Shown: positions 9,810 through 52,987 of the stretch, in pieces
Layout: each line of letters opens with the position of its first letter
How positions within the stretch are numbered: the stretch's first letter is position 1
Source of the DNA: Flavobacteriaceae bacterium UBA3356
GTDB lineage: Bacteria; Bacteroidota; Bacteroidia; Flavobacteriales; Flavobacteriaceae
Reading direction: 5' to 3'
Assembly (NCBI GenBank): GCA_002360635.1
Contig: DEQW01000003.1
Location: forward strand, 370,552 to 434,551
Length of the DNA: 64,000 nt
Notes under the pieces: generated by a model
Seen by the model: only the letters and a program-made list of their open reading frames with translations
What the model was told of the DNA's origin: nothing
The model's database searches: none
Position numbers and translations under genes: made by a program

Positions 9810-9834
9810 TTATTTAATTTCATTTATTATCTAT

Positions 9835-10887
9835 CTAGTCCATCGTTGCCAATTGCCGATTGGAAAGACTTTTTTTATAATGTGTTTTGTGTTCTATTTT
9901 TCGCTCTATGGCTTTGATTACTGTCTCGGTAAAATCTGGCAGGCCAATATCGTTGCAGTAATCCAATCCGCCGGGACTTAGTACATTTATTTCAATCAAC
10001 TTATCTTTAACGATGTCCAATCCAACAAAAAAGAGCCCGTCCCTAATTAACTTAGGTGCCGTAACATTAACAATTCGTTGCATTTCGTCAGTCAACTTTC
10101 CTTTTTCAGCTTTTCCGCCAAGTGCGAGGTTACTCCTAAATTCAGAATCATCCTTATTTACCCTCCGTATAACGGCTTGCTTGCCATCTTCTTCTAAAAT
10201 TTTACCATTCATTAAAATGACGCGTACATCGCCTTTTGAAACTTCTGGTAGAAACTCTTGTGCGATTACGTATCCCTTTTTGGTAATGGTTTCGATAATT
10301 TGATTGAGGTTCTTCTTGTCCTTATCAATTAAATAAACATTTTGACCTCCTGAACCTTCCAAGGGTTTTAATACCATTTTTTTGCCGTTGTCTTTCCAAA
10401 ACTTTAATAGATCCTCTTTGTTTCGGGTAATTAAACTATTTGGTTTTATAATGGAAGGTAACTCTTCAAAATATAGTTTGTCAATAAAGGCATGGGACAT
10501 GGCAAAAGCATCGTTTAATACCAGAACACCATTTTGCTGAATCATACGTGCAAAGGCAATTCCGCTATGTTCAGCCCAATGTCTATCATCTGTTTCCTCA
10601 GTAGGATTATTCCGAAGAAAAAGTACATCAAGATCTGAACTGCTAATCACTTTATATTTCAGTTCTTCATCCTGTACGCGTTCCCAAAATTTTTCTACTG
10701 TTCTAGATTTTGGTGTTTTCGGTACTTTTTTACACCGCAAACTGATGGGTTTGTCATGGTGAAAAATAAAATCACCTACACTCATTACATATAAATCGTG
10801 CCCTCTCTCGTGTGCTTTTTTCATTAACACTACCGAAGTTCCTATAGCTTCGGATTCTATATCGCTAATTACAAAACATATCTTCAT
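9835..10887 (-). CDS. glutathione-synthetase-like ATP-grasp ligase
   Basis: KPLEGSGGQNV, QEFLPE, FRSNLALGG, EINVLSPGG ATP-grasp motifs. Confidence 0.88.
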   Translation of the reverse strand: MKICFVISDIESEAIGTSVVLMKKAHERGHDLYVMSVGDFIFHHDKPISLRCKKVPKTPKSRTVEKFWERVQDEELKYKVISSSDLDVLFLRNNPTEETDDRHWAEHSGIAFARMIQQNGVLVLNDAFAMSHAFIDKLYFEELPSIIKPNSLITRNKEDLLKFWKDNGKKMVLKPLEGSGGQNVYLIDKDKKNLNQIIETITKKGYVIAQEFLPEVSKGDVRVILMNGKILEEDGKQAVIRRVNKDDSEFRSNLALGGKAEKGKLTDEMQRIVNVTAPKLIRDGLFFVGLDIVKDKLIEINVLSPGGLDYCNDIGLPDFTETVIKAIERKIEHKTHYKKSLSNRQLATMD

Positions 10888-10889
10888 TT

Positions 10890-12728: not shown

Positions 12729-12783
12729 TATTCTTCTTGTTATTGCTTGATCTATGCTTAATAATTTTATCTAAGCATAAGAT

Positions 12784-12814
12784 AAAAAAACGCCTCGATG
12801 AGACCGAGGCGTTT
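12784..12814 (-). terminator. intrinsic terminator after displaced asnB 3' end
   Basis: 10-bp stem AAACGCCTCG/CGAGGCGTTT, 7-nt loop, U-tract on minus strand. Confidence 0.8.
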
Positions 12815-12879
12815 AAAAATTATTTAACGCTAAATTAGCAACCAAAGAGCTATTTGTTAAATTAATAGCTTAAAAATGA

Positions 12880-13079
12880 TTACTTGCTATACGCATCACT
12901 ATGAACGTTTGCAACAGCCCGTCCACTAGGGTCGTTCATGTTTTTAAAACTTTCATCCCATTCTAACGCTGCAGGACTGCTACAGGCTACTGAAGGAACA
13001 GATGGCACACTCAACGCCGCCGTATCACTGGGGAAATGTTCAGTAAAAATAGAACGGTAATAAAACTCTTCTTTGCTGG
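12880..13079 (-). pseudogene. asnB: duplicated 3' fragment of asnB (ends ...AVANVHSDAYSK*)
   Basis: 12889-13079 matches 17581-17771 at 183/191 nt, in frame, with its own stop at 12880-12882. Confidence 0.92.
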
Positions 13080-13158
13080 CAAGTCAACAGCATTTTATTG
13101 ATAAATTAATATCAAAAAATAAAATTTGTATTTTTAATCTTAAAAATACTGACAGAGT

Positions 13159-13893
13159 ATGATTCAAAATATTCAAGAGTTCTTGAACGATATAAAACAT
13201 AAATTTGAGGACGAGAGTTTTCAGGTAAGTGATTTTTCCAGTATTGCACACTTTCCTTTAAATTCTAAGCAATGCATTTACATTATGGATTGGCCAACTG
13301 GTAGGATAACATATAAAAGGAACATATATAAAATATTGGGATATGATGATGATGAATTTAATATAGACATGCTTCTTAACATTGCACACTCCGACGACTT
13401 AAAAATCATCAAACGGATTACTCAAGCCGTTGTGAATCATCTTACGAGCCATACCAAGTTTTCTTACGAAGACACTTCACTAATTTTGATATATAGATTT
13501 CGAAAAAAAGATGGAACTTATATAAAAATATTGAGACAATCCACCTTATTCGAAAAATCAAGTAATGGTATGTTAAAGAGTAATTTATCTATTTTGACGG
13601 ATATTTCATTTGCCGATACCGATGATTATGTAAGTTGGGAATTCCTTGCTCCTCAAATTGAAGAAGAAAATTTTAGAAAAGAAGTCTATAGGGAATTTTC
13701 AAATCTTTTTACAAGGAGGGAAGTGACCATTATAGAGCTTATAGCGGAAAAATATACTACCAAGGATATTGCTGAAAAACTGTTTATTAGTGAGCATACG
13801 GTCAATACCCATAGAAAGAATATTTTAAAAAAAGGAAATTGCCATAATGCAGGTCAACTCATTGCATTTTGTAAAAAAGTAGGCGTGTTATAA
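13159..13893 (+). CDS. PAS-fold + LuxR-type HTH transcriptional regulator
   Basis: C-terminal FTRREVTII...IAEKLFISEHTVNTHRKNILKK LuxR HTH; PAS-like YRFRKKDGTYI; no receiver domain. Confidence 0.88.
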   Translation: MIQNIQEFLNDIKHKFEDESFQVSDFSSIAHFPLNSKQCIYIMDWPTGRITYKRNIYKILGYDDDEFNIDMLLNIAHSDDLKIIKRITQAVVNHLTSHTKFSYEDTSLILIYRFRKKDGTYIKILRQSTLFEKSSNGMLKSNLSILTDISFADTDDYVSWEFLAPQIEEENFRKEVYREFSNLFTRREVTIIELIAEKYTTKDIAEKLFISEHTVNTHRKNILKKGNCHNAGQLIAFCKKVGVL

Positions 13894-38230: not shown

Positions 38231-40609
38231 TTGATAATGAAAACACAAAACGGTGAATTTCCTTTAAAGGTACAAGTGAGCTTTAGTAAGCTTTTTAATA
38301 AGTATCGTGCGCAACTGGATGCTCCTCAAGAAATGATTAGGGAGCGTGCAAAAGCTGTTTTGGAAATAGCCGAACAATATCCTATCCTAGAAAAAGGGAT
38401 TACAACCAAGGCTCAATTTGAAAAGTACGATGAGCAAATCGATATTGTTTTGGACGAGTTATTTTCTTCTATTTTACAAGAAAATGAAATAAAACTGGCC
38501 ACAGTTCCTTTTCAGGAGTTTGTTTTCAAATCATCTAAACGATATAAAAACATTATTGCGGCAGCAGGAGAGGAATTTATACCACAACTTGCCAATTTTG
38601 ATGATGACTACACTTATATAATGAGCTGTAGCATTATTTTAAATGTACATTATGGGTATAACGTGGATTTTAAACGTCCGTTGCATTACACAATACCAGA
38701 TGCCGATGGTGTAAATCATACCTATCGTACTTTATATAATGGAGATTTTGTTGACCTAATACCAACTGATAAGGCGGTTGATATTACAGATGCAGATGTT
38801 GAAGAGCTGTTGGACGGTTTTGATAATATTGCACTGTGGAAAGAAAAATTTCCGCCCGGAAGTTGGATTTTTAAAGGCTTTGTAATTGCCAATATGTTCG
38901 ATGTTACCTTAGATGCATCTATTTCGGACTTTAAATCCAATTTATTACGTAATAATCCCGAAACTGAAGATAACACTAAAACGTTTGAATCTATCTTCAA
39001 ATCTATTTTTCAACTTCAGGAACTTAAAATTGGTTTTTCAGAATTTAATGAAGAAGATCAATTGTTCGAAAAATTTATCTTTAAGAATATCGACAGCTTC
39101 ATATTAAATGAAAAAGACAAACAGAATTGCCAAACAGCGCTTTGTGACGCATCGTATTACAAACTTTTTAAACAAAAAGAGTTTTATTGTATATCGAACG
39201 TGCCAAAATACCATAAGCTGTACCCCGATAATATTTTATATAAAAAACTGTTGGATCAAGGCATTAAAAGTGCCATTTTAGCATCTATTGTAAATAAAGA
39301 AAACAAAGTATTGGGGATTTTAGAATTAGTATCTCCTAATATTAACGACCTTAACTCTATAAACGCCAACAAGCTACATACAATTATGCCCTTCTTGGTA
39401 GATTCAGTAGTTCGTGGAAAAAAACAAATTGAGAACAAACTCGAGTTAATCATTCAAGAAGAATGTACGTCCTTGCACCCCAGTGTACATTGGAAATTTA
39501 GAAAAGAAGCTAAACGTTACTTAAACTCCATCTCACAAGGGAACCCTACGTACTTTAAAGAAATTATTTTTGAAGACGTACACCCACTATACGGTCAAAT
39601 TGACGTTAAAGGTTCTTCGGAAGCAAGGAATAATGCGACTATAAAAGACTTAATACTTCAACTGAAACAAATTAAGGAAATAATCAAGAAAATAAATAAC
39701 CTTGAACCACTTCCTATTTATGAACATTTAGAGTTTAGAATAACAAACTATCTTACAGATCTTAAAGAAGGCTTGCAAGTAGATAGCGAGCGTCAAGTGC
39801 TTAAGTTTTTGAGAACAGAAATAGTTCCTTTATTTAAGCATTTAGGTACTAAAAATGAAAATTTAAAGAATTTAATAAAAAACTATAACGAACAGGTAGA
39901 TGAAAATAGCGGTTTAATTTATAAGTACCGTAAGGACTATGATGATGCTGTAATGATCATCAATAAGCGTATGGCTTCAATTATTGATAAAAAACAAATT
40001 GAAGCTCAAAAAATGTATCCGCATTATTTTGAACGTTTTAAAACCGATGGAGTAGAGCACAACTTATATATTGGCGAAGCCATCACCAAAAATAAAAATT
40101 TCAATAAAGTTTATCTGTATAACTTGAGATTATGGCAATTACAGGTAATGTGCGAAATGGAAAACAATTACTACAAGCTTAAAGAGCAATTGCCCATGCA
40201 ATTAAATGTAGCTTCTATGATCTTGGCTTTTAATGGTTCTTTGTCACTTCGGTTTAGAATGGACGAAAAACGCTTTGATGTAGACGGAACTTACAATGCA
40301 CGTTATGAGGTTGTGAAAAAACGGGTTGATAAGGCAAACATTAAAGGAACTGAGGAGCGTGTTACGCAAGAAGGTAAAATTGTCATTATTTATTCTCAAA
40401 GAGAAGATGAAAAAGAGTATTTAAAGTATATTTCATTCCTTCAACACAAAAAACAGCTAGATAAAGATGTTGATATTGTAGAACTTGAAGATCTACAAGG
40501 TGTTACAGGTTTAAAAGCCATACGTGTAAGTGTTCTTTACTCTAAAGACAAGGACAATAAAAAAGAATACTATACTTACAACGATTTAATTACTGAAATC
40601 AATAATTAA
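38231..40609 (+). CDS. GAF-domain protein with C-terminal class III nucleotidyl-cyclase-like motifs
   Basis: GAF signature GIKSAILASI...VLGILELVS; IDVKGSS (D458), FKTDGV (D606), KRFDVDGTYNARYE; cyclase call is an inference. Confidence 0.75.
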   Translation: MIMKTQNGEFPLKVQVSFSKLFNKYRAQLDAPQEMIRERAKAVLEIAEQYPILEKGITTKAQFEKYDEQIDIVLDELFSSILQENEIKLATVPFQEFVFKSSKRYKNIIAAAGEEFIPQLANFDDDYTYIMSCSIILNVHYGYNVDFKRPLHYTIPDADGVNHTYRTLYNGDFVDLIPTDKAVDITDADVEELLDGFDNIALWKEKFPPGSWIFKGFVIANMFDVTLDASISDFKSNLLRNNPETEDNTKTFESIFKSIFQLQELKIGFSEFNEEDQLFEKFIFKNIDSFILNEKDKQNCQTALCDASYYKLFKQKEFYCISNVPKYHKLYPDNILYKKLLDQGIKSAILASIVNKENKVLGILELVSPNINDLNSINANKLHTIMPFLVDSVVRGKKQIENKLELIIQEECTSLHPSVHWKFRKEAKRYLNSISQGNPTYFKEIIFEDVHPLYGQIDVKGSSEARNNATIKDLILQLKQIKEIIKKINNLEPLPIYEHLEFRITNYLTDLKEGLQVDSERQVLKFLRTEIVPLFKHLGTKNENLKNLIKNYNEQVDENSGLIYKYRKDYDDAVMIINKRMASIIDKKQIEAQKMYPHYFERFKTDGVEHNLYIGEAITKNKNFNKVYLYNLRLWQLQVMCEMENNYYKLKEQLPMQLNVASMILAFNGSLSLRFRMDEKRFDVDGTYNARYEVVKKRVDKANIKGTEERVTQEGKIVIIYSQREDEKEYLKYISFLQHKKQLDKDVDIVELEDLQGVTGLKAIRVSVLYSKDKDNKKEYYTYNDLITEINN

Positions 40610-41814
40610 GACATTCTAGAACCGCCTAAATAGAAAGATATAGCGAAAGCTAGTATCGATATAATAGTTCCTGTAACAAATATGGTATAGGTCCATCTTA
40701 AAATACGATATTTACGATCTAACACCTTACCTAAAAAGTACAAATCTTTGGTTAATGCAGTATAAACGTAATCACGGTCTTTAAGTAATTCTTGCATTGC
40801 CCATTCGTATTCTTGAAGTTCCATGCGATGGAAATTTCCGAAGAAAGCTAGGTTTACACTTTTATTGTCAACATCTTCTTTCGTGAACTCGCCTCTCGTA
40901 ACATTGGGGCGTGTAGCTATTACCGATAAAATCATTGTAATAGCACTGAAAATAACGAATATTGCCGTCGGTATTATTAAATAATCGTTGGAAGGATTGT
41001 CTAGTTTTGAAAGTAAATTAGAGAGTACCAACGAAATGATAATGGCATTTACCGAAAGCAGTATGTTTGCTTTGGTATCGGCAATATCACTTAATTTAAT
41101 GTGGTTTCTAAGCGCAGTTCTATAAAAGGTTTGAATGCCTCGATCTACGCTTTTATCTTTATATTTAGCCTTTAATTGGGCTTTAACTTCTTCTTTCTTT
41201 ATTTTCTTTTTTATTTTTTTGTTCTTGCCTATTAAATCAGCCAAGTTTTCTTGTTTGGTATTTTGCCAATTGTTTAAAGCATAAGAAGTATAAAACTTGT
41301 GTTTGTTTATAAGAAGATCGATGTTTTCGTCCCGCCATTCTTGAGGGGTATAGTTTTTAATGTTCTGGGCAATGTATTCTTGCCTTAAAAACTCACTGGC
41401 CTCTTCAAAATAGTCTTTCCCAAAATGCGAAGAGTCTGCATCGCGCATTATTTCCTCCATATGATCTTTGGGAGTTGTGTTTTTAAACTTGGTAGCCATG
41501 ATGCATTTTTCAACGCCATCGATAATGTCTTTTTCAACATCTTTAGACTCCAGAAACTCACGTGCAATTTTTACGCTCTCTTCTTCGTGGCCTTCCCGTT
41601 TAACAATGTATCCCGTGTCGTGCAGTATGGCGGCCAATTTAAGGATGGTGGCATCTTTAACAGAAATTTGTGAGTCTTCAATAATTTCGTTTATACTTTT
41701 ATAAACACGTTTTGTGTGCGAATAGTTATGATAAACAAAGGTGTTGGGTAACTTTTCCTTAAAGAGGTTAAGTACAAAATTATCCGCTTCTTCAATTATA
41801 TCTTTGTCGCTCAT
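40606..41814 (-). CDS. HD domain + Pycsar-effector-like (DUF5706/PycTM) membrane protein
   Basis: YHN..H, AAILHDTGY, DADSSH HD motifs; ADTKANILL, RP, LAFFG, RKY..LR plus three TM helices. Confidence 0.88.
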   Translation of the reverse strand: MSDKDIIEEADNFVLNLFKEKLPNTFVYHNYSHTKRVYKSINEIIEDSQISVKDATILKLAAILHDTGYIVKREGHEEESVKIAREFLESKDVEKDIIDGVEKCIMATKFKNTTPKDHMEEIMRDADSSHFGKDYFEEASEFLRQEYIAQNIKNYTPQEWRDENIDLLINKHKFYTSYALNNWQNTKQENLADLIGKNKKIKKKIKKEEVKAQLKAKYKDKSVDRGIQTFYRTALRNHIKLSDIADTKANILLSVNAIIISLVLSNLLSKLDNPSNDYLIIPTAIFVIFSAITMILSVIATRPNVTRGEFTKEDVDNKSVNLAFFGNFHRMELQEYEWAMQELLKDRDYVYTALTKDLYFLGKVLDRKYRILRWTYTIFVTGTIISILAFAISFYLGGSRMS

Positions 41815-41869
41815 AAAATCTCAGTTTTAAATATCCAAATTACTAAAAATACCACGCTTTAATTTGCTT

Positions 41870-44800
41870 ATGAAAAAAATTAACATCTTTATAACTTTTA
41901 TCACTGCACTATTGTTTTTCTCTTGTGCAACCTACCAACCTCAATACTCTTCAACCTACCAGACCAATTCTTTTTCTAGTGATGGAAAAGAAGTAGAAAA
42001 AACATTCTACTTAATGGGCGATGCGGGTTATTTATCCATAGGTGAAACAGAAAAAAACTTAGCGCTACAATCTTTCAAAAAGTATATAGCAGATAAAAAC
42101 ACAGAAAATGATAATCTGTTATTCCTTGGAAACAGCTTTTTTCCAGAAGGGCTCCCCGAAGATGATAGTCCTGAAAAAGAGAAAGCAAAACAAATTATAA
42201 AGCAGCAATTAGACGCTATTGAAAGTTTTAAAGGTACTGTTAATGTGTTGCCGGGTAACCTCGATTGGAAATCTGGTGTTGATGGTCTAGAATTAGAAGA
42301 AGACTTGTTGAAAGAAGCTTTAAATTCAGATTCTGTGTTAGAACCAAATAACGGATGTCCACTTGAAGAAGTGGAAATCAACGATTCGGTTCATTTAATA
42401 ATGATCGACACACAATGGTATATAGAAAACTGGGACAAGCACCCAAAAATGAATGACAAATGCCAGATTAAAAACCGAGCTAAGTTTTTAGTTGAACTAG
42501 AGGGCGAGCTTAAAAAAGCAAAGCAAAAAACAATAATCTTAGCGATGCACCACCCATTGTACACCAATGGTAAACATGGAGGGAAATTCCCAGCCAAAAA
42601 TCATTTACTGCCAGTTCCAGGTTTGGCATCCTTAATTACGCAAGTAAGAAGCCAAGGGGCAATATCTTCACAAGACAGATATAATGAAGCTTACAGCGAA
42701 TTAATGGGCAGAATTGAAGTGTTGGTGAAAGATCATAAAAATTTGGTTCTCGTTTCAGGTCACGATCGTTCATTGCAATATATTGAAGGAGCCAATGCAA
42801 AACAAGTTATTTCGGGATCTGCAGGAGATGCCACAGCTGCAGCTTTGGGTGAAAACGGAGAATTTTCATATGGTGGACAAGGTTTCAGTAAAGTGACTAT
42901 TTACAAAGATGGTTCAACTTCAGTTACATTTTTTAAAGCTGAAGAAGATGGAAGTTCAACCATTGTATTTGAAAAGGAAATTATAGCTCCAGAAAGAAAA
43001 TATAACGTTTCAAAATTACCAAATACATTTCCTAAAACCGTAAAAGCTGCTGTGTATAGCGATAGCTTGGTAAATAGAAGCAGTTTCTTTAAGACAGTTT
43101 GGGGCGACCATTATCGTAAAGTGTACGGCAAAGAAGTGTTAGCACCAACAGTAGATTTAGATACACTATACGGCGGCCTGACCGTAGAACGTGCTGGCGG
43201 AGGCCACCAAACAGTTTCACTTCGTTTAGTAGATAAAGAAGGTCACGATTATAATATGCGGGCGTTAAAAAAGAGTGCGGTACAATTTTTACAGACCGTA
43301 ATTCTTAAAAATGAAGTAATTGAAAGTGACTTTAAAAACACGCTCCCAGAAGACTTAATTTTAGATTTTTATACGGCGGCCCATCCATATGGAGCTTTTG
43401 CCATTCCAAAATTGGCAGATGCGGCAAAAGTGTTCCATACCAACCCCAAGTTGTTTTATGTTCCCAAACAAAAGGCGCTTGGTAAGTTTAATGAAACGTA
43501 TGGAGATGAATTGTATATGATTGTTGAACGTCCTGACGAAGAATATGACGAGGCTATTTTTGATTACGCTGAAGATATTATTAGTACCGATGATGTACTT
43601 GAAGAAATAAGAAAGGATGAAGAAAATAAAATAAACCAGAAAGCATACATTCGTGCCCGGATGTTCGATATGTTGATTGGAGATTGGGATCGCCATAACG
43701 ATCAGTGGCGATTTGCCTTACAAGAAGATGAAGACGGAAATAAAATATACACGCCAATCCCACGGGATAGAGATCAGGTTTTTGCAAACTTTGATGGCGG
43801 ATTGTTAGATGCAGTACGTACATTGTTTAGTACGGCTCGGCAATTTCAAGTGTACGGGCCAGAATTAAAACATACCAAGTGGTTTAATAGTGCCGGAATA
43901 AAGTTAGACCGCGCATTAGCCGAAAACTACGGAAGAGAAGAATGGATGGCTCAAGCAGAATACATTAAAGAAAATGTAACCGATGAAGTTATAGAAAATG
44001 CGTTTAATGATTTGCCTAAAGAAGTGCAAGATGAAACTGCTGAAGAAATTAAAGAAAACCTAAAAGGAAGGCGCGATAATATTGTAAGAATTGCTTCAGA
44101 ATATTACGACTACTTTTCAAATCTTCAAATTTTAACGGGTACCGATAAGGATGATATTTTCGAAATCACCCGACTTCCAGAAGGAAAAACAAATATCAAG
44201 GCTTATAGAATAAAAGATGGTGAAAAAGGAGACCTTATTCTTGATAGGACGTTTTCAAAAGATGACACCAAAGAGCTTTGGGTTTATGGACTCGATGATG
44301 ATGATGTTTTTGAAGTAAAAGGAAAAGGTAGCCGTCCAATTTTTACCCGAATTATTGGTGGACAAAATAACGACACCTACGATATTGAAAACGGAAGTAG
44401 AATAAAGGTTTATGACCAAAAAAGTAAGAAAAACACCATTAAAAATAAAGGTGGTGCAGCTTTTAGGATTACCAATAATTACAATTTCAATACCTACGAT
44501 TATATAAAAGAAAACAAAACCATAAACCTCTTATTACCGGCGTTTGGTTACAATGCAGATGATGGATTTTTAATTGGACTTTCTGATACGTTTACCGTTC
44601 ATGGCTTTCAGGAAAACCCATTTAAACAAAAGCATAGTGTAAAAGCAGGGTACTATTTTGCTACTGAAAGCTTTGATGTAAATTATAGCGGTGAGTTTGC
44701 CAATATTTTCTCAGATTGGAATTTCCTCTTAGAAGGACATTTCCGTAACCCAAATTTTTCTGAAAACTTTTTTGGCTTCGGAAATGAAACTGAAAATTTT

Positions 44801-45556
44801 GATGACGATCTAGGGAACGATTATAACCGAGTGCGTATAGGAAGTTATGGCGGCGCATTAGGAATTAAAAAAGATGGACGATATGGAAGTGCAATTGAGT
44901 TTAAAGCAAAATTTGAAGGTGTTGAAGTAGAAGATACCGACGGTAGATTTATTTCAGATATTGGATACCTAGATGTTGAGGAAAGAAAGTATTTTGCATC
45001 AGCTGAAGGTACATACACCTATGAAAGTTTTGACAATAAAGCCAATCCTGGTAGGGGAATGCATGCAAGTTTAACAGCAGGAGGAACTCAAAACATCGAT
45101 GATAGTGATCGTATTTTTGGATATGTAATTCCGAAATTAACTTTTTACAACGCATTGACAAAAGACAAAAAGCTGGTTTTAAACACCAAAGCAGTTGGTC
45201 ACTTTAACGTCGGAAATAATTTTGAGTTTTACCAAGGAGCCCAATTGGGTAGAGACTATGGTCTTCGAGGGTACCGTAGGGATCGCTTTACCGGTCGTAG
45301 TGCCGTAGCTGGAGGAGCAGATCTACGATACAGCTTTAATAGTTTTAGAACTGCCGTAACACCAATACAAATAGGTGTATTTGCTGGATATGATGCTGGT
45401 AGGGTATGGGTTCCTAATGATACTTCAGATGTATGGCACGATAGCTATGGTGGTGGTTTTTGGATTAATGCTGCCGATTTATTAAGTGGTACTGTTAATA
45501 TTTTTACATCAGATGAAGGTGTTCAGTTTTCTTTTAAAGTAGCTTTTTCAATGTAA
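41870..45556 (+). CDS. metallophosphoesterase(degenerate)-kinase-like-Omp85 lipoprotein, paralog 1
   Basis: Lipobox FFSC; GDAG/GNS/GNLD/HHP/GHDR; GGGHQT, ALKK, DRHNDQW, PRDRDQVF; barrel LRGYR..RF.G. Confidence 0.85.
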   Translation: MKKINIFITFITALLFFSCATYQPQYSSTYQTNSFSSDGKEVEKTFYLMGDAGYLSIGETEKNLALQSFKKYIADKNTENDNLLFLGNSFFPEGLPEDDSPEKEKAKQIIKQQLDAIESFKGTVNVLPGNLDWKSGVDGLELEEDLLKEALNSDSVLEPNNGCPLEEVEINDSVHLIMIDTQWYIENWDKHPKMNDKCQIKNRAKFLVELEGELKKAKQKTIILAMHHPLYTNGKHGGKFPAKNHLLPVPGLASLITQVRSQGAISSQDRYNEAYSELMGRIEVLVKDHKNLVLVSGHDRSLQYIEGANAKQVISGSAGDATAAALGENGEFSYGGQGFSKVTIYKDGSTSVTFFKAEEDGSSTIVFEKEIIAPERKYNVSKLPNTFPKTVKAAVYSDSLVNRSSFFKTVWGDHYRKVYGKEVLAPTVDLDTLYGGLTVERAGGGHQTVSLRLVDKEGHDYNMRALKKSAVQFLQTVILKNEVIESDFKNTLPEDLILDFYTAAHPYGAFAIPKLADAAKVFHTNPKLFYVPKQKALGKFNETYGDELYMIVERPDEEYDEAIFDYAEDIISTDDVLEEIRKDEENKINQKAYIRARMFDMLIGDWDRHNDQWRFALQEDEDGNKIYTPIPRDRDQVFANFDGGLLDAVRTLFSTARQFQVYGPELKHTKWFNSAGIKLDRALAENYGREEWMAQAEYIKENVTDEVIENAFNDLPKEVQDETAEEIKENLKGRRDNIVRIASEYYDYFSNLQILTGTDKDDIFEITRLPEGKTNIKAYRIKDGEKGDLILDRTFSKDDTKELWVYGLDDDDVFEVKGKGSRPIFTRIIGGQNNDTYDIENGSRIKVYDQKSKKNTIKNKGGAAFRITNNYNFNTYDYIKENKTINLLLPAFGYNADDGFLIGLSDTFTVHGFQENPFKQKHSVKAGYYFATESFDVNYSGEFANIFSDWNFLLEGHFRNPNFSENFFGFGNETENFDDDLGNDYNRVRIGSYGGALGIKKDGRYGSAIEFKAKFEGVEVEDTDGRFISDIGYLDVEERKYFASAEGTYTYESFDNKANPGRGMHASLTAGGTQNIDDSDRIFGYVIPKLTFYNALTKDKKLVLNTKAVGHFNVGNNFEFYQGAQLGRDYGLRGYRRDRFTGRSAVAGGADLRYSFNSFRTAVTPIQIGVFAGYDAGRVWVPNDTSDVWHDSYGGGFWINAADLLSGTVNIFTSDEGVQFSFKVAFSM

Positions 45557-45578
45557 ATCAAGAATATTAATATTGCTT

Positions 45579-48500
45579 ATGCGTTTCAAAAAGACAGCCC
45601 TTTTTTTAACTTTTATAACACTAGTAAGTGCTTGTGCTTCCTATGAACCTCAGTATAAAAACCCTGAGGCAGAGGCGTTATTTCCTTCAGATAAAAAAAT
45701 AGAACGAACTTTTTATTTAGTTGGTGATGCTGGTATTTCGCCTGCAAATAGAATGAGCAAGGGGCTTACTGTTTTTAATAATTATTTGAAAGAACACCCA
45801 ACTAAAACAAGTGATCACGCAATCTTTTTGGGCGATAATATTTACGATAACGGGATGCCCGCAGAAGGCCATCCAGATAGGGAAATCAGTGAATACTATA
45901 TGGACAACCAGTTTAAAGCATTAGAAGACTTTAAAGGGCAAACCTATATTATTCCCGGAAACCACGAATATTATTCAGGAGGGCTTGTCGGGCTTAAGCG
46001 CGAACAAGAGTACGTTCAAAAACATTTAGACTCTTTGTCTTTTCAGCCTACAGGAGGATGTCCATTGATAAATTTTTCAGTTTCAGAAAATGTTGAATTA
46101 TTAATTCTTGACTCACAATGGTATCTTGAAGACTGGAATAGCGATCCAGATTTCAACAAAAACTGCGAAATTAAAACGCGTGAAAAACTGTTTATTGAAA
46201 TAGCCAATGAACTTGAAAAGAATAAAAATAAAACGGTTCTTTTTGCTATGCACCATCCTATGTTTACCAATGGTACACATGGTGGCTATTTTGCTTTAGA
46301 AAAACATTTGTACCCTACACAAAGTAAGTTTCCATTGCCTATACTTTCATCTTTAGTGGTGCAAATACGTTCACAGGGTGGAGTGTCAGTTCAAGATAGG
46401 TACAATGAACTTTATAACAAGTTGATGAACCGTTTGGCTTCTTTAGCTAAAGATCATGGTCGGGTGGTTTTTACTTCTGGTCACGAACATACTCTTCAGC
46501 ACGTAGAAAAAGAGGGATTGGTACAAATACTTTCAGGTTCAGGTGGTAAATCATCACATGCGGCTTTAGGACAGAATGGGGTTTTTAGTTATGGTGGACA
46601 AGGCTTCGCTATTTTTGATATTTTAGAAGATGGATCTTCATTTGTAAGGTATTATGGTGGAACGGAAGACGACCAACCAAAACTGTTGTTTCAGAAAGAA
46701 GTATTTCCTTCTAATAAAACCTACCCTGCTTCTGTCTTGCCAAATAATTATGAGGCTACCAAAGAAGTTGCTATTTACGAGCAAGATAGTGTTAGTGAGG
46801 CCTTGTTTTTCAAAACAGTTTGGGGTGCTAAATATAAGGACGCCTATACTAATAAAGTCACAGCAAAAATTACATCATTAGATACACTTTATGGTGGTCT
46901 AGAAGTAATACGGGAAACAGGTAATGAAGAATATGATGCTTTAATTTTGGAAGACAAAAGAGGCAATAGGTACCGAATGCGTGCAATGAAGCAAAATGCT
47001 TTGGAGTTTTCACAAAAAATAGTTTTTGAAGAAGATACAGAAACTGAAAAAATAGATAAAGAAGACTCAAAAGTAGCTCCTAAAAATACCTTTGGCGTAG
47101 ATTTTTATACCGCAACCCATCCGTATGCACCACTTGCTCTCCCAACATTGGCAAAGGCTGCCAATATTTTTCATAATCAGACAGAACTATTCTATATCCC
47201 CAAACAAAAACAATTAGGAGTTTACAATGAAAAATTTGGAGACGCCCTTTATTTACTTACTACACAACCTGCTGAAAGCACTAAAGGTGAACCTCTTTTT
47301 GAGTATCCCGACGATATTGAAACAGCAGATGATATTCTTATAAAACTTCGAAGAGGCCGAGAGGTTTCAATAGATGAAGAAAACTTTATACGTTCCCGTT
47401 TATTTGATATGCTCGTGGGCGACTGGGATAGGGAACCAGGCCACTGGCGATGGGCAGAATACTTACGTCAAGATAGTGTAAATGTCTTTGTTCCCATACC
47501 AAGAAACAGGGATGATGCTTTTTCTAGCTTTGAAGGAAATGTGCTTGATATTGCAAGATCTATATTTGGTAGAACCTATGAAAAACAGGTGTATAATGAA
47601 AACCTACGAGACATACGATGGTTTAATAAAGAAGGAATTATATTAGACCGTGCTCTTCTAAAAAAATCAGGAAGGGAAGAATGGATTAATGCTGCAAAAA
47701 ACTTACAAAAAGTAATTTCAGACTCTATTATTGAAACCGCTTTTTCAACCATTCCCCGAAGCGTAAATAATGAATCTTTACAAGATATAATTACCGCCTT
47801 AAAAGGGAGAAGGGACAATCTTGAAAAAATTGCCGACAGGTATTACTCTTATTTGGCAAAATTACAAACTATTGAAGGAACCAATAAAAGAGACTTCTTT
47901 CAGGTAACTAGGTTGGCTGATGGAAAAACAAATGTACGGACTTACAATTTTCCTTCAGACGATAGAGGGATGTTAGTGGCAGACCGAACATTTCTTGCTT
48001 CAGAAACAAATCAGATTTGGATTTATGGTTTGGATGAAGAAGATATTTTTGAAGTGACTGGAACGGGCGATAATCCAATATTTGTAAGGTTAATTGGTGG
48101 TCATGGCAATGATGTGTATCGACTGATTGAAGGAAAAAAAGTAAAGGTGTATGATCACGAAAGTAAAGAAAATACCGTTGAGGTTAAAAATGGAGGGAAT
48201 TTACGACTTACCGATGTATATACCTTAAATACATACGACTACCGGAAAAACATTCAAAACACACATGCGTATGCCGCGGCATTTGGTTACAACCCTGATG
48301 ATGGGTATAGAGCCGGATTACAGTATGTTTATCAAGTAAACAGCTTTCAGCAAAACCCTTTTTCACGCCGACATAGTTTAAATGTTGGTTACTATTTTGA
48401 CAGCGATAGTTTCGATGTAAGTTATGAAGGAGAAATAGCCAATATTAGAAATACACTGAATTTAAGTTTCGGTGGTCGTTTTACAGGTCCTACTTACGTG

Positions 48501-49295
48501 GTAAATTACTTTGGTTACGGAAATGAAACTATCAATCCAGAAGACGATTTAGGCTTTAATTATAACAGGGTTCAAGTACAAACGCTTATGGCAAAAGCGG
48601 GATTGCTGCGAAACTCAAACTTTGGTAGCTTTTTTAAATTGCAAGGTAAGTTTGAAGCAATTCGTGTAAATGACGATATACCAGGTATTACAAATATTCG
48701 CAGAGTTGATAAAACTGAAAATTTTGATCCATATGGTACCCTTGAAGGTATTTATAATTACCGTAGTTTTGACAACTTTAGAAATCCAACTATTGGTATG
48801 ATGTTCGACCTAAACACGGGTGTAACAGGTAATTTCGATAATTTTAAAAGAGTATTTGGGTTTTTGAAGACCCGGCTTGGTTTTTACAATAGCCTAACCA
48901 CCAATAAAAAGTGGGTGTTAAAGACTAATGTTCGGGCAAAGTTTAACTTCGGGAGTCAATTCGAATTTTTCCAAGCCATTAATTTAGGTGCAAACACAGG
49001 CCTTCGTGGTTTTAGGGAAGAGCGTTTTTCTGGAAAATCTTCATTGGTAGGAAGTGCCGATGTTCGTTACAGTTTTGATGAATTTAAAGTTGGGCTAATT
49101 CCGTTGCAAATAGGTCTTTATGGCGGAGCCGATTTAGGCCGTGTATGGACCCCTGAATTTGATTCAGAGAAATGGCACAACTCGTATGGCGGAGGCCTTT
49201 GGATTAATGGTAGCGGTGGTTTAACCGGTTCAGCTAGCCTATTTCACTCTGTAGAAGGAGCTCGCTTGGTATTCGGCTTAGGATTTGACTTTTAA
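45579..49295 (+). CDS. metallophosphoesterase(intact)-kinase-like(degenerate)-Omp85 lipoprotein, paralog 2
   Basis: Lipobox VSAC; GDAG/GDNIY/GNHE/HHP/GHEH all intact; kinase motifs altered; LRGFR..RF.G and C-terminal Phe. Confidence 0.85.
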   Translation: MRFKKTALFLTFITLVSACASYEPQYKNPEAEALFPSDKKIERTFYLVGDAGISPANRMSKGLTVFNNYLKEHPTKTSDHAIFLGDNIYDNGMPAEGHPDREISEYYMDNQFKALEDFKGQTYIIPGNHEYYSGGLVGLKREQEYVQKHLDSLSFQPTGGCPLINFSVSENVELLILDSQWYLEDWNSDPDFNKNCEIKTREKLFIEIANELEKNKNKTVLFAMHHPMFTNGTHGGYFALEKHLYPTQSKFPLPILSSLVVQIRSQGGVSVQDRYNELYNKLMNRLASLAKDHGRVVFTSGHEHTLQHVEKEGLVQILSGSGGKSSHAALGQNGVFSYGGQGFAIFDILEDGSSFVRYYGGTEDDQPKLLFQKEVFPSNKTYPASVLPNNYEATKEVAIYEQDSVSEALFFKTVWGAKYKDAYTNKVTAKITSLDTLYGGLEVIRETGNEEYDALILEDKRGNRYRMRAMKQNALEFSQKIVFEEDTETEKIDKEDSKVAPKNTFGVDFYTATHPYAPLALPTLAKAANIFHNQTELFYIPKQKQLGVYNEKFGDALYLLTTQPAESTKGEPLFEYPDDIETADDILIKLRRGREVSIDEENFIRSRLFDMLVGDWDREPGHWRWAEYLRQDSVNVFVPIPRNRDDAFSSFEGNVLDIARSIFGRTYEKQVYNENLRDIRWFNKEGIILDRALLKKSGREEWINAAKNLQKVISDSIIETAFSTIPRSVNNESLQDIITALKGRRDNLEKIADRYYSYLAKLQTIEGTNKRDFFQVTRLADGKTNVRTYNFPSDDRGMLVADRTFLASETNQIWIYGLDEEDIFEVTGTGDNPIFVRLIGGHGNDVYRLIEGKKVKVYDHESKENTVEVKNGGNLRLTDVYTLNTYDYRKNIQNTHAYAAAFGYNPDDGYRAGLQYVYQVNSFQQNPFSRRHSLNVGYYFDSDSFDVSYEGEIANIRNTLNLSFGGRFTGPTYVVNYFGYGNETINPEDDLGFNYNRVQVQTLMAKAGLLRNSNFGSFFKLQGKFEAIRVNDDIPGITNIRRVDKTENFDPYGTLEGIYNYRSFDNFRNPTIGMMFDLNTGVTGNFDNFKRVFGFLKTRLGFYNSLTTNKKWVLKTNVRAKFNFGSQFEFFQAINLGANTGLRGFREERFSGKSSLVGSADVRYSFDEFKVGLIPLQIGLYGGADLGRVWTPEFDSEKWHNSYGGGLWINGSGGLTGSASLFHSVEGARLVFGLGFDF

Positions 49296-49315: not shown

Positions 49316-52300
49316 ATGAAATTATCCCCATTTTACTTAATACTTTCTTTTCTGCTTTTAGCTTCTTGCGCTACATCAAAACTACAAACACGATTAGATA
49401 GAACAATTGATGATACCTATAACGAAGAAAATGTAGTAAATACTATTTATGTAACAGGAAATGCTGCTAAAAATAATGAAACAACTTTGTCTGTTTTAAG
49501 TAAAACGATTGCGAATAATGCTTCCAAAGAAAAAAGCGTTCTTTTTATTGGGGATAATATAGATGCTGAAAACGGCGAGGAAGAAAAACTTAAAAAGCAG
49601 CTTGATCCTCAAATTCGAGTAGTAAAAACTACTGGGGCTACCCCTTATTTTTTACCAGGAAATTACGAATGGGATTTCAATAAAACCAAAGGGCTGGAAA
49701 CAATTGAAGATTACTTAAAAGAAAATTTTGAAGATGGCGATATCCTAACCCCAAATAACGGTTGCCCTTTAGAGAGTATTGAGCTTTCAGAAAACATACA
49801 ATTAATAGCGGTGGATAGCCAATGGTTTATTGAAGACTGGGACAAGAACCCCAATATGAATGATAAATGCCAGATTAAAACACGTGAAAAACTTCTCTTG
49901 GAAATTGCTGGTGAAATAAAGAAAAGCGCCAATAAAATAATAATTTTTGCGATGCACCATCCTATGTTCACGAATGGTTTTCATGGAGGGCGATTTTCAT
50001 TTCGGGATCATATTTTTCCATTGCAAGGTAACATTCCATTGCCGGGTGTAGGAACACTCATTACCGAAATTCGTTCACAAGGTGGTGTGTCTAAGCAAAA
50101 CCGCTTTAACTATCGGTATAGTGAGCTTATGAAGGAACTTGAAATCTTACTGAATAAGCCCGACCATCGTATTCTAATAGTTTCAGGGCACGAGGAAAAC
50201 CTTCAGTATATCGAAGAAGGAAACTTTAAACAGTTGGTTAGTGGCGCTGCATCTACTACTAAACCAGTTTCGTTAAGTGACAATGGTATTTTTTCATACG
50301 GAAAACAAGGCTTTGCTTCTGTTGAAATAACAGATAAAGGAAGTGTTTGGGTCTCTTTTCATGCTTCGGAAGAAAAAAAAGACACATCAAATCTATTATT
50401 CAGAAGAAAAATTTTCCAGCCAATTGAAGAGCCAAAAACCGAATCGTATCCCAAAACATATCCGCGAACGTATACCGCTTCAGTTTACGATATTGAAAAA
50501 GTAGAAAAATCTGATTTTTTCAAATCCTTTTGGGGGCAACATTATCGAGATGTTTATGGAACGAAGGTAAAGGCATCTACAGCTTTACTAGATACTCTTT
50601 ATGGGGGATTAGAAGTGGTAAGGCCAGGAGGCGGACATCAAACGCGTTCCTTAAGGTTAGTGACAAAAGATGGTAAAGAATATAATATGCGTGCCCTTAA
50701 AAAGAGTGCTGTTCAACTATTGGAAACAACAACTTTTAATGGAATTGACGCTGAAAAATATTTCAGCAATACAGTACCGGAGGATTTAATTCTAGATTTT
50801 TACACAGCAGCACATCCCTATGGGGCATTTGCAATTCCAAAACTGGCCAAAGCGGCGGGTGTATATTATACCACGCCAGAATTGTATTACGTACCTAAGC
50901 AGCAGCGTTTAGAAAAGTATAATGAAGGCTACGGTAATCAATTGTATATGATTGTAGAACGTCCTGCGGAAGAGTATGAAAACCGTAAAAGCTTTGGATA
51001 TCCAGATAATGTGGAAAGCACAGACGACTTATTGGAAAAACTCAGGGAAGACGAGGACCATACCTTAGACGAAGCGACGTATATTCGAGCACGTATTTTT
51101 GATATGTTGATTGGCGATTGGGACAGACATAGCGATCAATGGCGTTGGTCAGAGTTTGAAGATGAGGATGGGAAGTTACAGTTTATACCCATTCCACGGG
51201 ATCGAGATCAGGTTTTTGCCAATTTTGACGGTAGCTTTTTAAACTTACTTAGAAAGTTATCTGGTTCAATAAATCAGTTCGGTATTTATAACGAAGATAT
51301 TAAGGATGTCGCTTGGTTTAATAAAGCAGGTTCAAAGTTAGACCGTGCCCTTATTAAACGAAGTGATAAGTCAACTTGGATTGAGGAAGCTAAAAAAATG
51401 CAAAAAGCAATTGACGAAGAAATTTTAGACAACGCTTTTAAGGACCTTCCTGTGGAAGTACAAGACACAACTAGTAGCGAGATAAAAAAATCATTTCTAA
51501 AAAGAAAAGAAAACCTTGTAAACATTGTAGAACGCTATTATCACGAGTTTATAAAATTTCAAATGTTGACAGGAACCGATAAAGATGATCATTTTGTTAT
51601 AAACCGTCAGCCCAATGGAAAAACACAAATAACTGCCTATAGAATAAAAGATGGGGAAAAAGGCGATGTATTGTTTGATAGGGTTTTTAACTCAGAAGAA
51701 ACAAAAGAGATTTGGTTGTATGGATTGGACGATGATGATGTTTTTGAAGTAAACGGTGTAGCAGAAAAAGCAATTTTAATACGATTAATAGGAGGGCAAG
51801 ATGATGATATTTATAACATTTCAGAAGGAAAAAAAATTGTAGTGTATGATAATAAAGATGATGAGGTAGAAATAAAAAATAAAGGTGGAGCCCGTTTTAA
51901 AACCACTAATATTTATGAAGCCAATAGCTATGATTACACGAAGAAGAAATCTTCTGCCAGTACCATTAGCTTGAAAACACTGTATAATAACGATACAGGA
52001 GTTTCTTTAAAAGCTTCTTACACGAATGATAAGTTTAACTTTATAAAAAACCCATACAGCAAAAGAACCAATATTTCACTTGATTATAATTTTCAAACCA
52101 CAGGATTTGATATTGACTTTTTAAAAGGGTTTGCGGCGGTAGTTAACGATTTTAATTTTGTGATAGATGGTAGGTATACCTCTTTAGATTATACTGAAAA
52201 CTTTTTTGGCTTCGGAAATGAAACAATTAATCCTGAAGATGATTTAGGGCTAAACTACAACCGTATTCAAATGGAAGGAATTCACGGCGGGCTGGCACTT

Positions 52301-52987
52301 GAAAAAGAAACAGATTATGGAAGTTTTTTTCAGTTAAAATTGAACCTAAATACAATAAAGTTAATTAATAATGAAAGTAATTTCTTGTTAGATGCAGCAG
52401 CAGAAGAATATACATTGCGGTCTTACTTTGCTGTTCCTGAAATTACTTATAGCTATAAAAATTATGATGCAGCTTATTTCCCAACCAAAGGAATGTTTTT
52501 TTCTGCCGCAGTAGGAGGGATTGATAATTTAAAATCGAATGATATTACTGGCTTTTTAAAGTCTTCCGTTTTGTTTTACAATTCACTATTAAGTAATAAC
52601 AGGCTTGTTTTGGAGACTGGGGCTTCTACACATTTGCAAGTAGGAGACAGGCCTGAATTTTACCAAACAGCGACTTTAGGAGCAAAAACAGGGTTAAGAG
52701 GGTACCGTGAGGGTAGATTTAAAGGCTTCAATAGCTTTTTAGGCAAAAGTGATTTATTGTATACGTTTCAACCCATAAAAACAGCTTTATTCCCTGTAAC
52801 GGTTAGAATACGTGGAGGGTACAATATAGGTCGTGTTTGGGTAAAAAGAGATACTTCAGAAAAATGGTACGATGCCTACGGTGGCGGATTTGATGTTTTA
52901 TGGACCAACGCCATAGTAGGAAGCTTTACGGCATTTAAAGGAGAAGAAGGAACTCGATTGTCTTTTGCACTTAAAATAAGCTATTAA
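49316..52987 (+). CDS. metallophosphoesterase(degenerate)-kinase-like-Omp85 lipoprotein, paralog 3
   Basis: Lipobox LASC; GNAA/GDNID/GNYE/HHP/GHEE; GGGHQT, ALKK, DRHSDQW, PRDRDQVF; LRGYR..RF.G, C-terminal Tyr. Confidence 0.85.
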   Translation: MKLSPFYLILSFLLLASCATSKLQTRLDRTIDDTYNEENVVNTIYVTGNAAKNNETTLSVLSKTIANNASKEKSVLFIGDNIDAENGEEEKLKKQLDPQIRVVKTTGATPYFLPGNYEWDFNKTKGLETIEDYLKENFEDGDILTPNNGCPLESIELSENIQLIAVDSQWFIEDWDKNPNMNDKCQIKTREKLLLEIAGEIKKSANKIIIFAMHHPMFTNGFHGGRFSFRDHIFPLQGNIPLPGVGTLITEIRSQGGVSKQNRFNYRYSELMKELEILLNKPDHRILIVSGHEENLQYIEEGNFKQLVSGAASTTKPVSLSDNGIFSYGKQGFASVEITDKGSVWVSFHASEEKKDTSNLLFRRKIFQPIEEPKTESYPKTYPRTYTASVYDIEKVEKSDFFKSFWGQHYRDVYGTKVKASTALLDTLYGGLEVVRPGGGHQTRSLRLVTKDGKEYNMRALKKSAVQLLETTTFNGIDAEKYFSNTVPEDLILDFYTAAHPYGAFAIPKLAKAAGVYYTTPELYYVPKQQRLEKYNEGYGNQLYMIVERPAEEYENRKSFGYPDNVESTDDLLEKLREDEDHTLDEATYIRARIFDMLIGDWDRHSDQWRWSEFEDEDGKLQFIPIPRDRDQVFANFDGSFLNLLRKLSGSINQFGIYNEDIKDVAWFNKAGSKLDRALIKRSDKSTWIEEAKKMQKAIDEEILDNAFKDLPVEVQDTTSSEIKKSFLKRKENLVNIVERYYHEFIKFQMLTGTDKDDHFVINRQPNGKTQITAYRIKDGEKGDVLFDRVFNSEETKEIWLYGLDDDDVFEVNGVAEKAILIRLIGGQDDDIYNISEGKKIVVYDNKDDEVEIKNKGGARFKTTNIYEANSYDYTKKKSSASTISLKTLYNNDTGVSLKASYTNDKFNFIKNPYSKRTNISLDYNFQTTGFDIDFLKGFAAVVNDFNFVIDGRYTSLDYTENFFGFGNETINPEDDLGLNYNRIQMEGIHGGLALEKETDYGSFFQLKLNLNTIKLINNESNFLLDAAAEEYTLRSYFAVPEITYSYKNYDAAYFPTKGMFFSAAVGGIDNLKSNDITGFLKSSVLFYNSLLSNNRLVLETGASTHLQVGDRPEFYQTATLGAKTGLRGYREGRFKGFNSFLGKSDLLYTFQPIKTALFPVTVRIRGGYNIGRVWVKRDTSEKWYDAYGGGFDVLWTNAIVGSFTAFKGEEGTRLSFALKISY

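Follow-up and report, generated by a model that had tools for sequence, protein, structure and literature searches.

A protein-kinase-like (PKL) domain lies hidden in a lipoprotein of Flavobacteriaceae bacterium UBA3356, which we call P1 and whose C-terminus is an Omp85-type outer-membrane barrel. Its gene is the first of three tandem paralogues (P1 to P3) in a 64,000-nucleotide window (assembly GCA_002360635.1, contig DEQW01000003.1, forward-strand positions 370,552 to 434,551; the window is the whole stretch of DNA analysed, and coordinates below refer to it). According to the structural model, P1 residues ~400-757 have the fold of the PKL superfamily, and they probably form a genuine, catalytic PKL domain. 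We assign this domain to a new, exported PKL family that is part of an undescribed envelope module. In the reading we favour, with a probability of roughly 0.6, the domain is probably a catalyst that faces the periplasm and phosphorylates a substrate from a donor, a phosphatase reverses the reaction, and both act within a module containing a PycTM protein and a cyclase. The P1 features, in the order degenerate phosphoesterase, kinase-like domain, beta-rich linker and barrel, are as follows (ORF, open reading frame; AF2, AlphaFold2).

41864..45556, + strand: P1 lipoprotein ORF, 1230 aa counted from a TTG (ORF list, homologues, lipobox).
41996..43033, + strand: purple-acid-phosphatase-type metallophosphoesterase domain of P1, metal ligands lost (ligand table, P1/P2 pairwise alignment).
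43061..44134, + strand: PKL domain of P1 by model, aa 400-757 (AF2, Foldseek, family profile).
43196..43213, + strand: Gly-rich loop GGGHQT, aa 445-450 (conservation, AF2 model).
43256..43273, + strand: MRALKK, aa 465-470 (in frame in the P1 ORF).
43259..43273, + strand: basic pair R466/K470 (conservation, DSSP of the AF2 model).
43664..43708, + strand: end of the long helix and catalytic loop FDMLIGDWDRHNDQW, aa 601-615 (conservation, CtkA profile alignment).
43679-43708, + strand: GDWDRHNDQW, aa 606-615, with FDMLI just before it (P1 ORF translation).
43760..43783, + strand: PRDRDQVF, aa 633-640 (conservation; beta-hairpin ahead of it by DSSP).
44135..44503, + strand: all-beta, Asp/Gly-rich linker of P1 (DSSP of the AF2 model).
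44504..45556, + strand: Omp85/BamA-type outer-membrane beta-barrel of P1 (NCBIfam Omp85_fam).

The true start of P1 is likely the ATG at 41870, because homologues begin MKKINIF. Current annotation does not reveal the kinase-like domain. Pfam gives zero matches anywhere in P1 (P2 is matched by Metallophos only), NCBIfam gives nothing on P1 beyond a weak match to the C-terminal Omp85 barrel, and the middle ~360 residues have neither a Pfam family nor a sequence match in the PDB (Pfam, NCBIfam, and phmmer against PDB). Homologues that are 58-98% identical carry the public names 'phosphoesterase', 'metallophosphoesterase' or 'BamA/TamA family outer membrane protein'. Names and Pfam alike cover nothing between the two terminal domains, as a preliminary description of this DNA had noted. 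That description placed an atypical kinase domain at 43190-43790 on the basis of four motifs. All four (GGGHQT, MRALKK, the DRH loop and DRD) are in frame in P1 at the places given, and the interval holds them all, but it is the motif core only; the domain extends from about 43061 to 44134. The lysine singled out in MRALKK is conserved and is specifically the second K (K470), in a family pattern R-x-x-x-K. The label 'metallophosphoesterase Omp85' needs a qualification for P1 itself, whose phosphoesterase domain has lost metal ligands.

The evidence that carries the fold assignment is structural. An AF2 model of P1 residues 395-885, built with an 85-sequence alignment, has a mean predicted local distance difference test score (pLDDT) of 92.5 and a predicted TM-score (pTM) of 0.92. 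In a Foldseek search of the PDB, its 50 best matches are all kinases or pseudokinases of the PKL fold. The top matches are COQ8A/ADCK3 (E 5.5e-5) and HipA (E 6.9e-5, probability 1.00), and others include Rio2, HipT, a bacterial Ser/Thr kinase, JAK2 pseudokinase domains and aminoglycoside/macrolide phosphotransferases; PI4K-II-alpha (PDB 4hnd) is among the best TM-scores (0.40 on target). Thus the structure search proposed earlier as a check returned a PKL fold, located between the metallophosphoesterase domain and the Omp85 barrel where it had been predicted.

The elements of the model follow one another as in a kinase: a strand, the G-loop, a strand, a third strand, helices, a long helix, the DRH loop, a beta-hairpin and then D635-R-D637. 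GGGxQT connects the two strands with which the N-lobe begins (model 45-51 and 58-63), and R466 is within the third strand (model 68-73). The long helix (aa 592-605) carries R599 and D602 and runs into the DRH loop. The hairpin strands at aa 615-621 and 627-633 (model 221-227 and 233-239) lead directly to D635-R-D637, and in model order D635/D637 stand at the position of the metal-binding Asp of DFG. Several features are specific to the family: the Mg-binding Asn is a Gln, D607 is an additional invariant Asp, DFG is replaced by DRD, and the N-lobe contains a helical insertion of ~100 residues, with a spacing of 139 from K470 to D609. Of the DRHxxN-type signature cited in the preliminary description, the D609/R610/H611 loop and the downstream Asp are present, but the Asn is replaced by a conserved Gln614, which is a conservative variant.

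Conservation is concentrated on these positions across the phylum. On its own, the middle region draws in 3647 proteins at the level of 90%-identity clusters and 2059 cluster representatives at 50% identity, and the PKL domain is encoded in 160 of 401 sampled Bacteroidota genomes, from 68 of 179 genera. Short architectures among the representatives include fragments of full-length proteins, and only complete ORFs in genomes were counted. Across 139 representatives of 50%-identity clusters, G414, K470, R599, D602, D607, R610, D637, G645, D682 and R736 are conserved at 99-100%, and G445-G447, Q449, R466, D609, H611, D613, Q614, W615 and D635 at 86-98% (individually, K470 100%, D637 99%, R466 96%, D635 94% and D609 91%). 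The most conserved positions of the domain are those of the motifs already named plus a few others. The four motifs recur across loci of about 15 Bacteroidota families with the consensus GGGxQ[TS]xSL, R-[ST]-[LIV]-x-K, [FL]D[LM]x[LI]GDWDRHxDQW and P[IV]PRDRD[QN][AV]F, and, judged from these alignments, their co-occurrence is beyond chance. A contig scan for relatives gave only Flavobacteriaceae among its best 80, and Flavobacterium is one of the genera with a member.

The tandem copies divide these residues in a way that bears on function.

45573..49295, + strand: P2, tandem paralogue 43% identical to P1 (ORF list, alignment).
49316..52987, + strand: P3, third tandem paralogue (ORF list, motif table).

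All three proteins are full-length, separated by gaps of about 20 bp, and each has a lipobox cysteine. P2 keeps all nine ligand positions of the purple-acid-phosphatase type (GDAG, GDNIY, GNHEY, MHHP, GHEH), and its kinase-like domain is degenerate: the G-loop, H611, D613 and Q614 are lost, K470 is replaced by Q and D635 by N, and the loop reads GDWDREPGHW. P1 has GNSFF, GNLDW and GHDRS where P2 has GDNIY, GNHEY and GHEHT. P3 has intact kinase motifs (GGGHQT, MRALKK, GDWDRHSDQW, PRDRDQVF) and lost phosphoesterase ligands (GNAA, GNYEW, GHEEN). P1 and P3 keep 17 of 17 scored kinase-like positions and have each lost at least three phosphatase metal ligands. By these residues, P1 and P3 look kinase-competent and phosphatase-dead, and P2 looks phosphatase-competent and kinase-dead. 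A tandem pair in Aequorivita sp. H23M31 is split in the same way. Both residue sets are fully intact in 62 of 205 full-length relatives, and Croceibacter and Tamlana, which have a single orthologue at this locus, keep both as well. On this evidence the ancestor was bifunctional-looking, with later subfunctionalisation of the paralogues. Loss of kinase residues is confined to the copy whose phosphatase ligands are intact, which argues that both sets are under functional selection. The two activities, if present, apparently need not share one chain.

The same residues bear on whether the domain is a pseudokinase, one that binds a nucleotide, polyphosphate or a lipid head group and serves to regulate or position its phosphatase and barrel, with no transfer of phosphate. 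The Gln in place of the canonical Asn and the missing glycine of DFG (DRD) fit such a protein. P2 shows that the fold tolerates loss of catalytic residues, PKL pseudoenzymes are common, and the JAK2 JH2 domain is among the Foldseek matches. However, the near-invariance of K470, D607, D609, R610, D635 and D637 throughout the phylum exceeds the usual needs of binding, and these residues decay only where another paralogue keeps them. We consider a pseudokinase unlikely.

Like the rest of the family, P1 is an exported protein. It has the lipobox FFSC with Cys21, and every form of the domain that we inspected carries an export signal, in agreement with the earlier proposal that the domain is outside the cytoplasm. 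Lipoboxes are present in the fused forms and in the forms of 528-540 aa, and the stand-alone proteins of 423-425 aa begin with a hydrophobic anchor. Where kinase-like, phosphoesterase-lipoprotein and barrel proteins are separate, each of the three is exported. Bacteroidota surface lipoproteins use an acidic export signal after the cysteine. No such signal was found in 159 lipobox-bearing members, in which the residues after the cysteine follow the consensus C-A-T-Y-x-P-Q-Y (41924-41950 in P1) with D/E at 8% or less; this motif is present in most fused members. Domains N-terminal to the Omp85 barrel are periplasmic in BamA, TamA and FhaC. Because P1 is exported, lipid-anchored at Cys21 and ends in an Omp85 barrel, we infer that its kinase-like, phosphatase-type and linker domains are most likely on the periplasmic face of the outer membrane. 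No surface-export signal follows the lipobox, so the most probable arrangement is a kinase-like domain held to the outer membrane by both ends and turned towards the periplasm.

The barrel of P1 matches NCBIfam Omp85_fam over aa 984-1202 with an E of 1.1e-15 (the score is under the 200-bit subfamily cut-off), and the family profile matches BamA barrels (E 1e-7 to 1e-5) as well as purple acid phosphatases in the PDB. We found no POTRA before the barrel: the preceding 120 residues contain no beta-alpha-alpha-beta-beta unit in the AF2 model (DSSP), and Pfam gives no POTRA match. DSSP assigns only strands to model residues 360 to 475, so P1 is all-beta from aa 753 to the barrel. The linker matches no Pfam family and has RTX-like repeats, for instance YGLDDDDVFEV and IGGQNNDTYDI. 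The last residue of P1 (...KVAFSM, 45545-45556) is non-aromatic, and P2 ends in F and P3 in Y; an aromatic residue is usual in the C-terminal signals of outer-membrane barrels.

The main rival on placement is that the kinase-like and phosphatase-type domains are the surface passenger of a type-Vd-like autotransporter, in which the barrel exports them to act on environmental substrates with extracellular ATP or another donor. Enzyme domains followed by a C-terminal Omp85 barrel do recall PlpD, a beta linker with RTX-like Asp/Gly repeats is characteristic of secreted proteins that fold with Ca, and marine Bacteroidota show many lipoproteins on their surface. The absence of POTRA between passenger and barrel, together with the absence of the acidic signal among the 159 members, argues the other way. 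In addition, the stand-alone homologues have an N-terminal membrane anchor only, which would place them in the inner membrane facing the periplasm, and the conserved partners are inner-membrane and periplasmic proteins. A surface location therefore seems rather improbable.

The periplasm-facing arrangement is accompanied by a conserved set of neighbours. Upstream of P1 in the window are the following genes.

40606..41814, - strand: HD-PycTM inner-membrane protein, 402 aa (Pfam PycTM 9.6e-38, HD 6.2e-09; PADLOC PycTM/2TM effector models).
38231..40609, + strand: 792-aa 'GAF' protein (no Pfam match; AF2 and Foldseek).

The HD-PycTM gene is head-to-head with P1 across about 50 bp. PycTM occurs in 166 of 401 Bacteroidota genomes, and in the 124 with listed positions for both PKL and PycTM the two are within 6 kb of each other in 87 and within 20 kb in 106. 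Pfam gives no match for the 792-aa protein, and it is not detected by the cyclase models of Pfam or by any model of PADLOC. Its AF2 model (pLDDT 82.9) has as its best Foldseek match, over the full length, a phytochrome-regulated adenylate/guanylate cyclase, followed by DosP, soluble guanylate cyclase and phytochrome PAS-GAF modules. The full-length match to a sensor-cyclase suggests a divergent cyclase domain at the C-terminus, and the protein is probably, on its model, a divergent nucleotide cyclase with a PAS/GAF sensor attached. It is encoded in 64 of 401 genomes and is 12 kb or less from a PKL gene in 41 of 63, across seven families; in other lineages the slot is held by class III cyclases that Pfam recognises. 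The neighbours of the kinase-like gene at 20 sampled loci are listed here.

Most of 20 loci: HD-PycTM or PycTM.
12 of 20 loci: SdiA-regulated-type propeller lipoprotein.
11 of 20 loci: class III cyclase or homologue of the 792-aa protein.
5 of 20 loci: PPK1 (encoded in 344 of 401 genomes).

The locus is housekeeping DNA with conserved synteny and not a defence island. The PKL, phosphoesterase and barrel parts are found in one fused protein, in partial fusions or in three neighbouring genes, which supports a functional coupling of these domains. At 9251-13297 of locus L061 (genome G149), a PKL protein of 545 aa, a metallophosphoesterase lipoprotein of 403 aa and an Omp85-type barrel protein of 395 aa are encoded, in this order, by three consecutive genes; the order is unlike that of the fused proteins, so this is a 'Rosetta stone' and not a broken fusion. 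A single run of six co-directional genes at another locus (L046, 1560-11152, genome G347) is dense in phosphate chemistry, with an SdiA-regulated-type propeller lipoprotein, a phosphatase-kinase-barrel protein, HD-PycTM, PPK1, a membrane class III cyclase and a PAP2 phosphatase. At L045 (5992-12471, genome G028) the PycTM partner is 192 aa long and without an HD domain, and a TPR-containing class III cyclase (646 aa) is encoded between it and the kinase-like gene, forming a Pycsar-like pair inside the module. A stand-alone, membrane-anchored PKL protein (423 aa) is encoded near a membrane pyrophosphatase-like gene at L008 (1918-6653, genome G279), convergent with the gene for an 836-aa outer-membrane protein; three other stand-alone loci are without these neighbours.

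Two further observations concern the P1 gene itself. An ORF of 111 aa overlaps the kinase-like region on the minus strand (43361-43696); it is low-complexity and hydrophobic, and almost certainly spurious. In a search for expression evidence, the sequencing runs that contain P1 sequence were DNA and metagenome only.

Phosphoryl transfer by P1 could involve the GGGxQT loop and R466/K470, which would hold the phosphates of a nucleotide-type donor, with Mg2+ held by Q614 and D635/D637. D609 is the candidate catalytic base and would activate a hydroxyl group on a lipid, glycan or protein of the envelope. The purple-acid-phosphatase-type domain would take the phosphate off again, and in this genome the two activities would be divided between P1/P3 and P2. 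The strongest candidates for a role in donor control or supply are the partners in the module, namely HD-PycTM and the sensor cyclase, and elsewhere the propeller lipoprotein, PPK1 and PAP2. A more specific and doubtful version would make this a cyclic-nucleotide-controlled, envelope-spanning phosphoryl-transfer system. In it, a cyclic nucleotide made by the cytoplasmic sensor cyclase would open the inner-membrane HD-PycTM protein, a tamed relative of a phage-defence pore, which would act as a gate admitting nucleoside triphosphate or PPK1-made polyphosphate to the periplasm, and at the outer-membrane end of the system the lipid-anchored, Omp85-tethered kinase and its partner phosphatase would reversibly phosphorylate an outer-membrane or periplasmic substrate.

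Several findings weigh against a catalytic, periplasm-facing PKL domain working in such a module. The TM-scores of the Foldseek matches are low (0.2-0.4), and the domain must therefore be a distant branch of PKL. K470 is just beyond the third strand and not inside it, three residues past its end, and the site of the Mg-binding Asn of DxxxxN is occupied by Q614, a Gln in 94% of members. Sequence comparison is borderline, though coherent. The best PDB match of a 39-member domain profile, drawn from across the phylum, is H. pylori CtkA with a non-significant E of 0.052; the alignment spans the catalytic loop through the C-lobe and puts D609, R610 and H611 on the equivalent CtkA residues. When the family profile is compared by hhalign to HipA of E. 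coli, or to a profile of 10 HipA proteins from Bacteroidota, the probability is below 1% in both cases (E 0.2-0.4); the local alignment centres on the catalytic loops and places that of P1 on HipA D309/H311/N314, statistically without significance. No Pfam family reached threshold for the domain, even when members were scanned individually. Among the 39 members, CotH kinase (PF08757) appears in four (best E 0.012) and HipA_C (PF07804) in two (best E 0.035), all under the cut-off, and PI3_PI4_kinase (PF00454) gives no match even at an E of up to 10, the motifs reading DRHxDQ and DRD. As for the context, PPK1 is 350 kb from the locus in this genome, no propeller or Pfam-type cyclase is found within the 64-kb window, and we know of no ATP pool in the periplasm.

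Since no curated kinase family includes the domain, we regard it as a new family of the superfamily, nearest the CtkA/HipA/PI4K-II group. The kinship with PI3/PI4-kinases, HipA and CotH proposed in the preliminary description is accordingly retained for the HipA/CtkA type and PI4K-II, but not for PI3K proper or CotH. That no curated model detects the region also speaks for a chance resemblance, the region being a structural spacer. This is very improbable: fold prediction and fold search both give PKL, conservation falls on the catalytic positions, and a kinase, CtkA, is the top sequence-profile match across the PDB, with its catalytic loop in the alignment. As a separate observation, the catalytic-loop region of P1 draws weak matches from four PADLOC models for PDC-M03A, a candidate defence protein (best E 7.3e-5), at 43595-43726 of the window (aa 578-621) and at aa 589-743. 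From this similarity, PDC-M03A may carry a related kinase-like loop.

An ATP-poor compartment also invites other chemistry, such as nucleotidyl transfer (as in SelO), polyphosphate-dependent phosphorylation, regeneration of ATP from polyphosphate, or phosphodiester hydrolysis. PPK1 is in the cluster at 5 of the 20 loci and in L046, which has PAP2 as well, and the Gln for Asn and the additional invariant D607 would be compatible with an altered reaction. However, PPK1 is unlinked in this genome, and the residue set is like that of ordinary phosphotransferases. To our knowledge, no PKL enzyme uses polyphosphate and SelO-type enzymes are without the catalytic-loop Asp. We therefore think a different chemistry improbable, and continue to prefer donor-dependent phosphorylation on the periplasmic side, reversed by the phosphatase.

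PKL enzymes are thought to act where ATP is, that is, in the cytoplasm, in the eukaryotic secretory lumen or in host cells. The family described here (more than 2000 clusters, ~40% of Bacteroidota genomes) is exported, usually on an Omp85 barrel and beside a phosphatase. If it is active, phosphoryl-transfer chemistry takes place in the periplasm or at the outer membrane of these bacteria, and the envelope-spanning system, if true, would mean regulated phosphorylation in a Gram-negative periplasm. Linkage to PycTM, a sensor cyclase and sometimes PPK1 provides concrete candidates for delivery of the donor, and embeds Pycsar-type components (a cyclase and PycTM) in a conserved module that is not defensive. 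Thousands of records labelled only 'phosphoesterase' or 'BamA/TamA family' are corrected. The three paralogues offer natural separation-of-function alleles, as two look kinase-only and one phosphatase-only.

In the literature searched, no paper joins Omp85 with 'kinase-like'. Among known kinases, CtkA (JHP0940), HipA and HipT have the kinase-like fold in common with the P1 domain (HipA and HipT are top Foldseek matches), and CtkA is also an exported kinase. CtkA and HipA share the loop pattern hydrophobic-G-[DN]-x-D-R/x-H-x-x-[NQ]-W after a long helix with a conserved Asp, and the metal-binding Asp about 24-26 residues past the loop. In contrast to these proteins, the P1 family has a large helical insertion between Lys and loop (139 residues), Gln for Asn, and DRD for a DFG-like motif. 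Its domain is tied to a phosphatase and an Omp85 barrel, by fusion or by linkage, and 40% of Bacteroidota genomes have it as a core gene. Unlike HipA, the family has no HipA N-terminal domain, HipB partner or toxin-antitoxin context. The likeness to PI4K-II-alpha (TM 0.40) extends to the loop D-R-x-x-D-[NQ]-W of P1, which we take to resemble that of PI4K-II. However, the P1 family has no PF00454 match and is exported, not cytosolic, and no lipid-kinase activation loop was identified in the P1 domain.

Like P1, the type Vd proteins PlpD and FplA (patatin-POTRA-Omp85) join an N-terminal enzyme to a C-terminal Omp85-type barrel in a single polypeptide. P1 differs in having neither POTRA nor patatin, and in possessing an N-terminal lipid anchor and two enzyme-type domains; its passenger is probably not translocated, unlike theirs. 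A Riemerella anatipestifer metallophosphoesterase, as cited in PMC10281475, is listed in later reviews as a type IX secretion effector, and, judged from those reviews, it was dropped as unrelated to the Omp85-fused family. SEAE1 is an unannotated, Pfam-undetectable 'PI-kinase-like' PKL protein of Bacteroidota with a D-x-x-x-x-N loop, a D-x-D metal/ion-pair motif ~25 residues on and a neighbouring lipid phosphatase; its authors describe it as intracellular and stand-alone (bioRxiv 10.64898/2026.09.18.752743). Compared by description only, its Lys-to-Asp spacing is 76 against 139 in P1, and no barrel, lipobox or PycTM link is described. By that description it is a different, cytoplasmic PKL family.

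The Pycsar system (PycC and PycTM) resembles the surroundings of P1 rather than P1 itself. The partner gene encodes a bona fide PycTM domain, and a cyclase or cyclase-like sensor is co-located. In contrast to Pycsar, PycTM is here usually fused to HD, and the trio is syntenic and occurs in roughly 40% of Bacteroidota genomes, with an outer-membrane kinase-like protein as its invariant third member.

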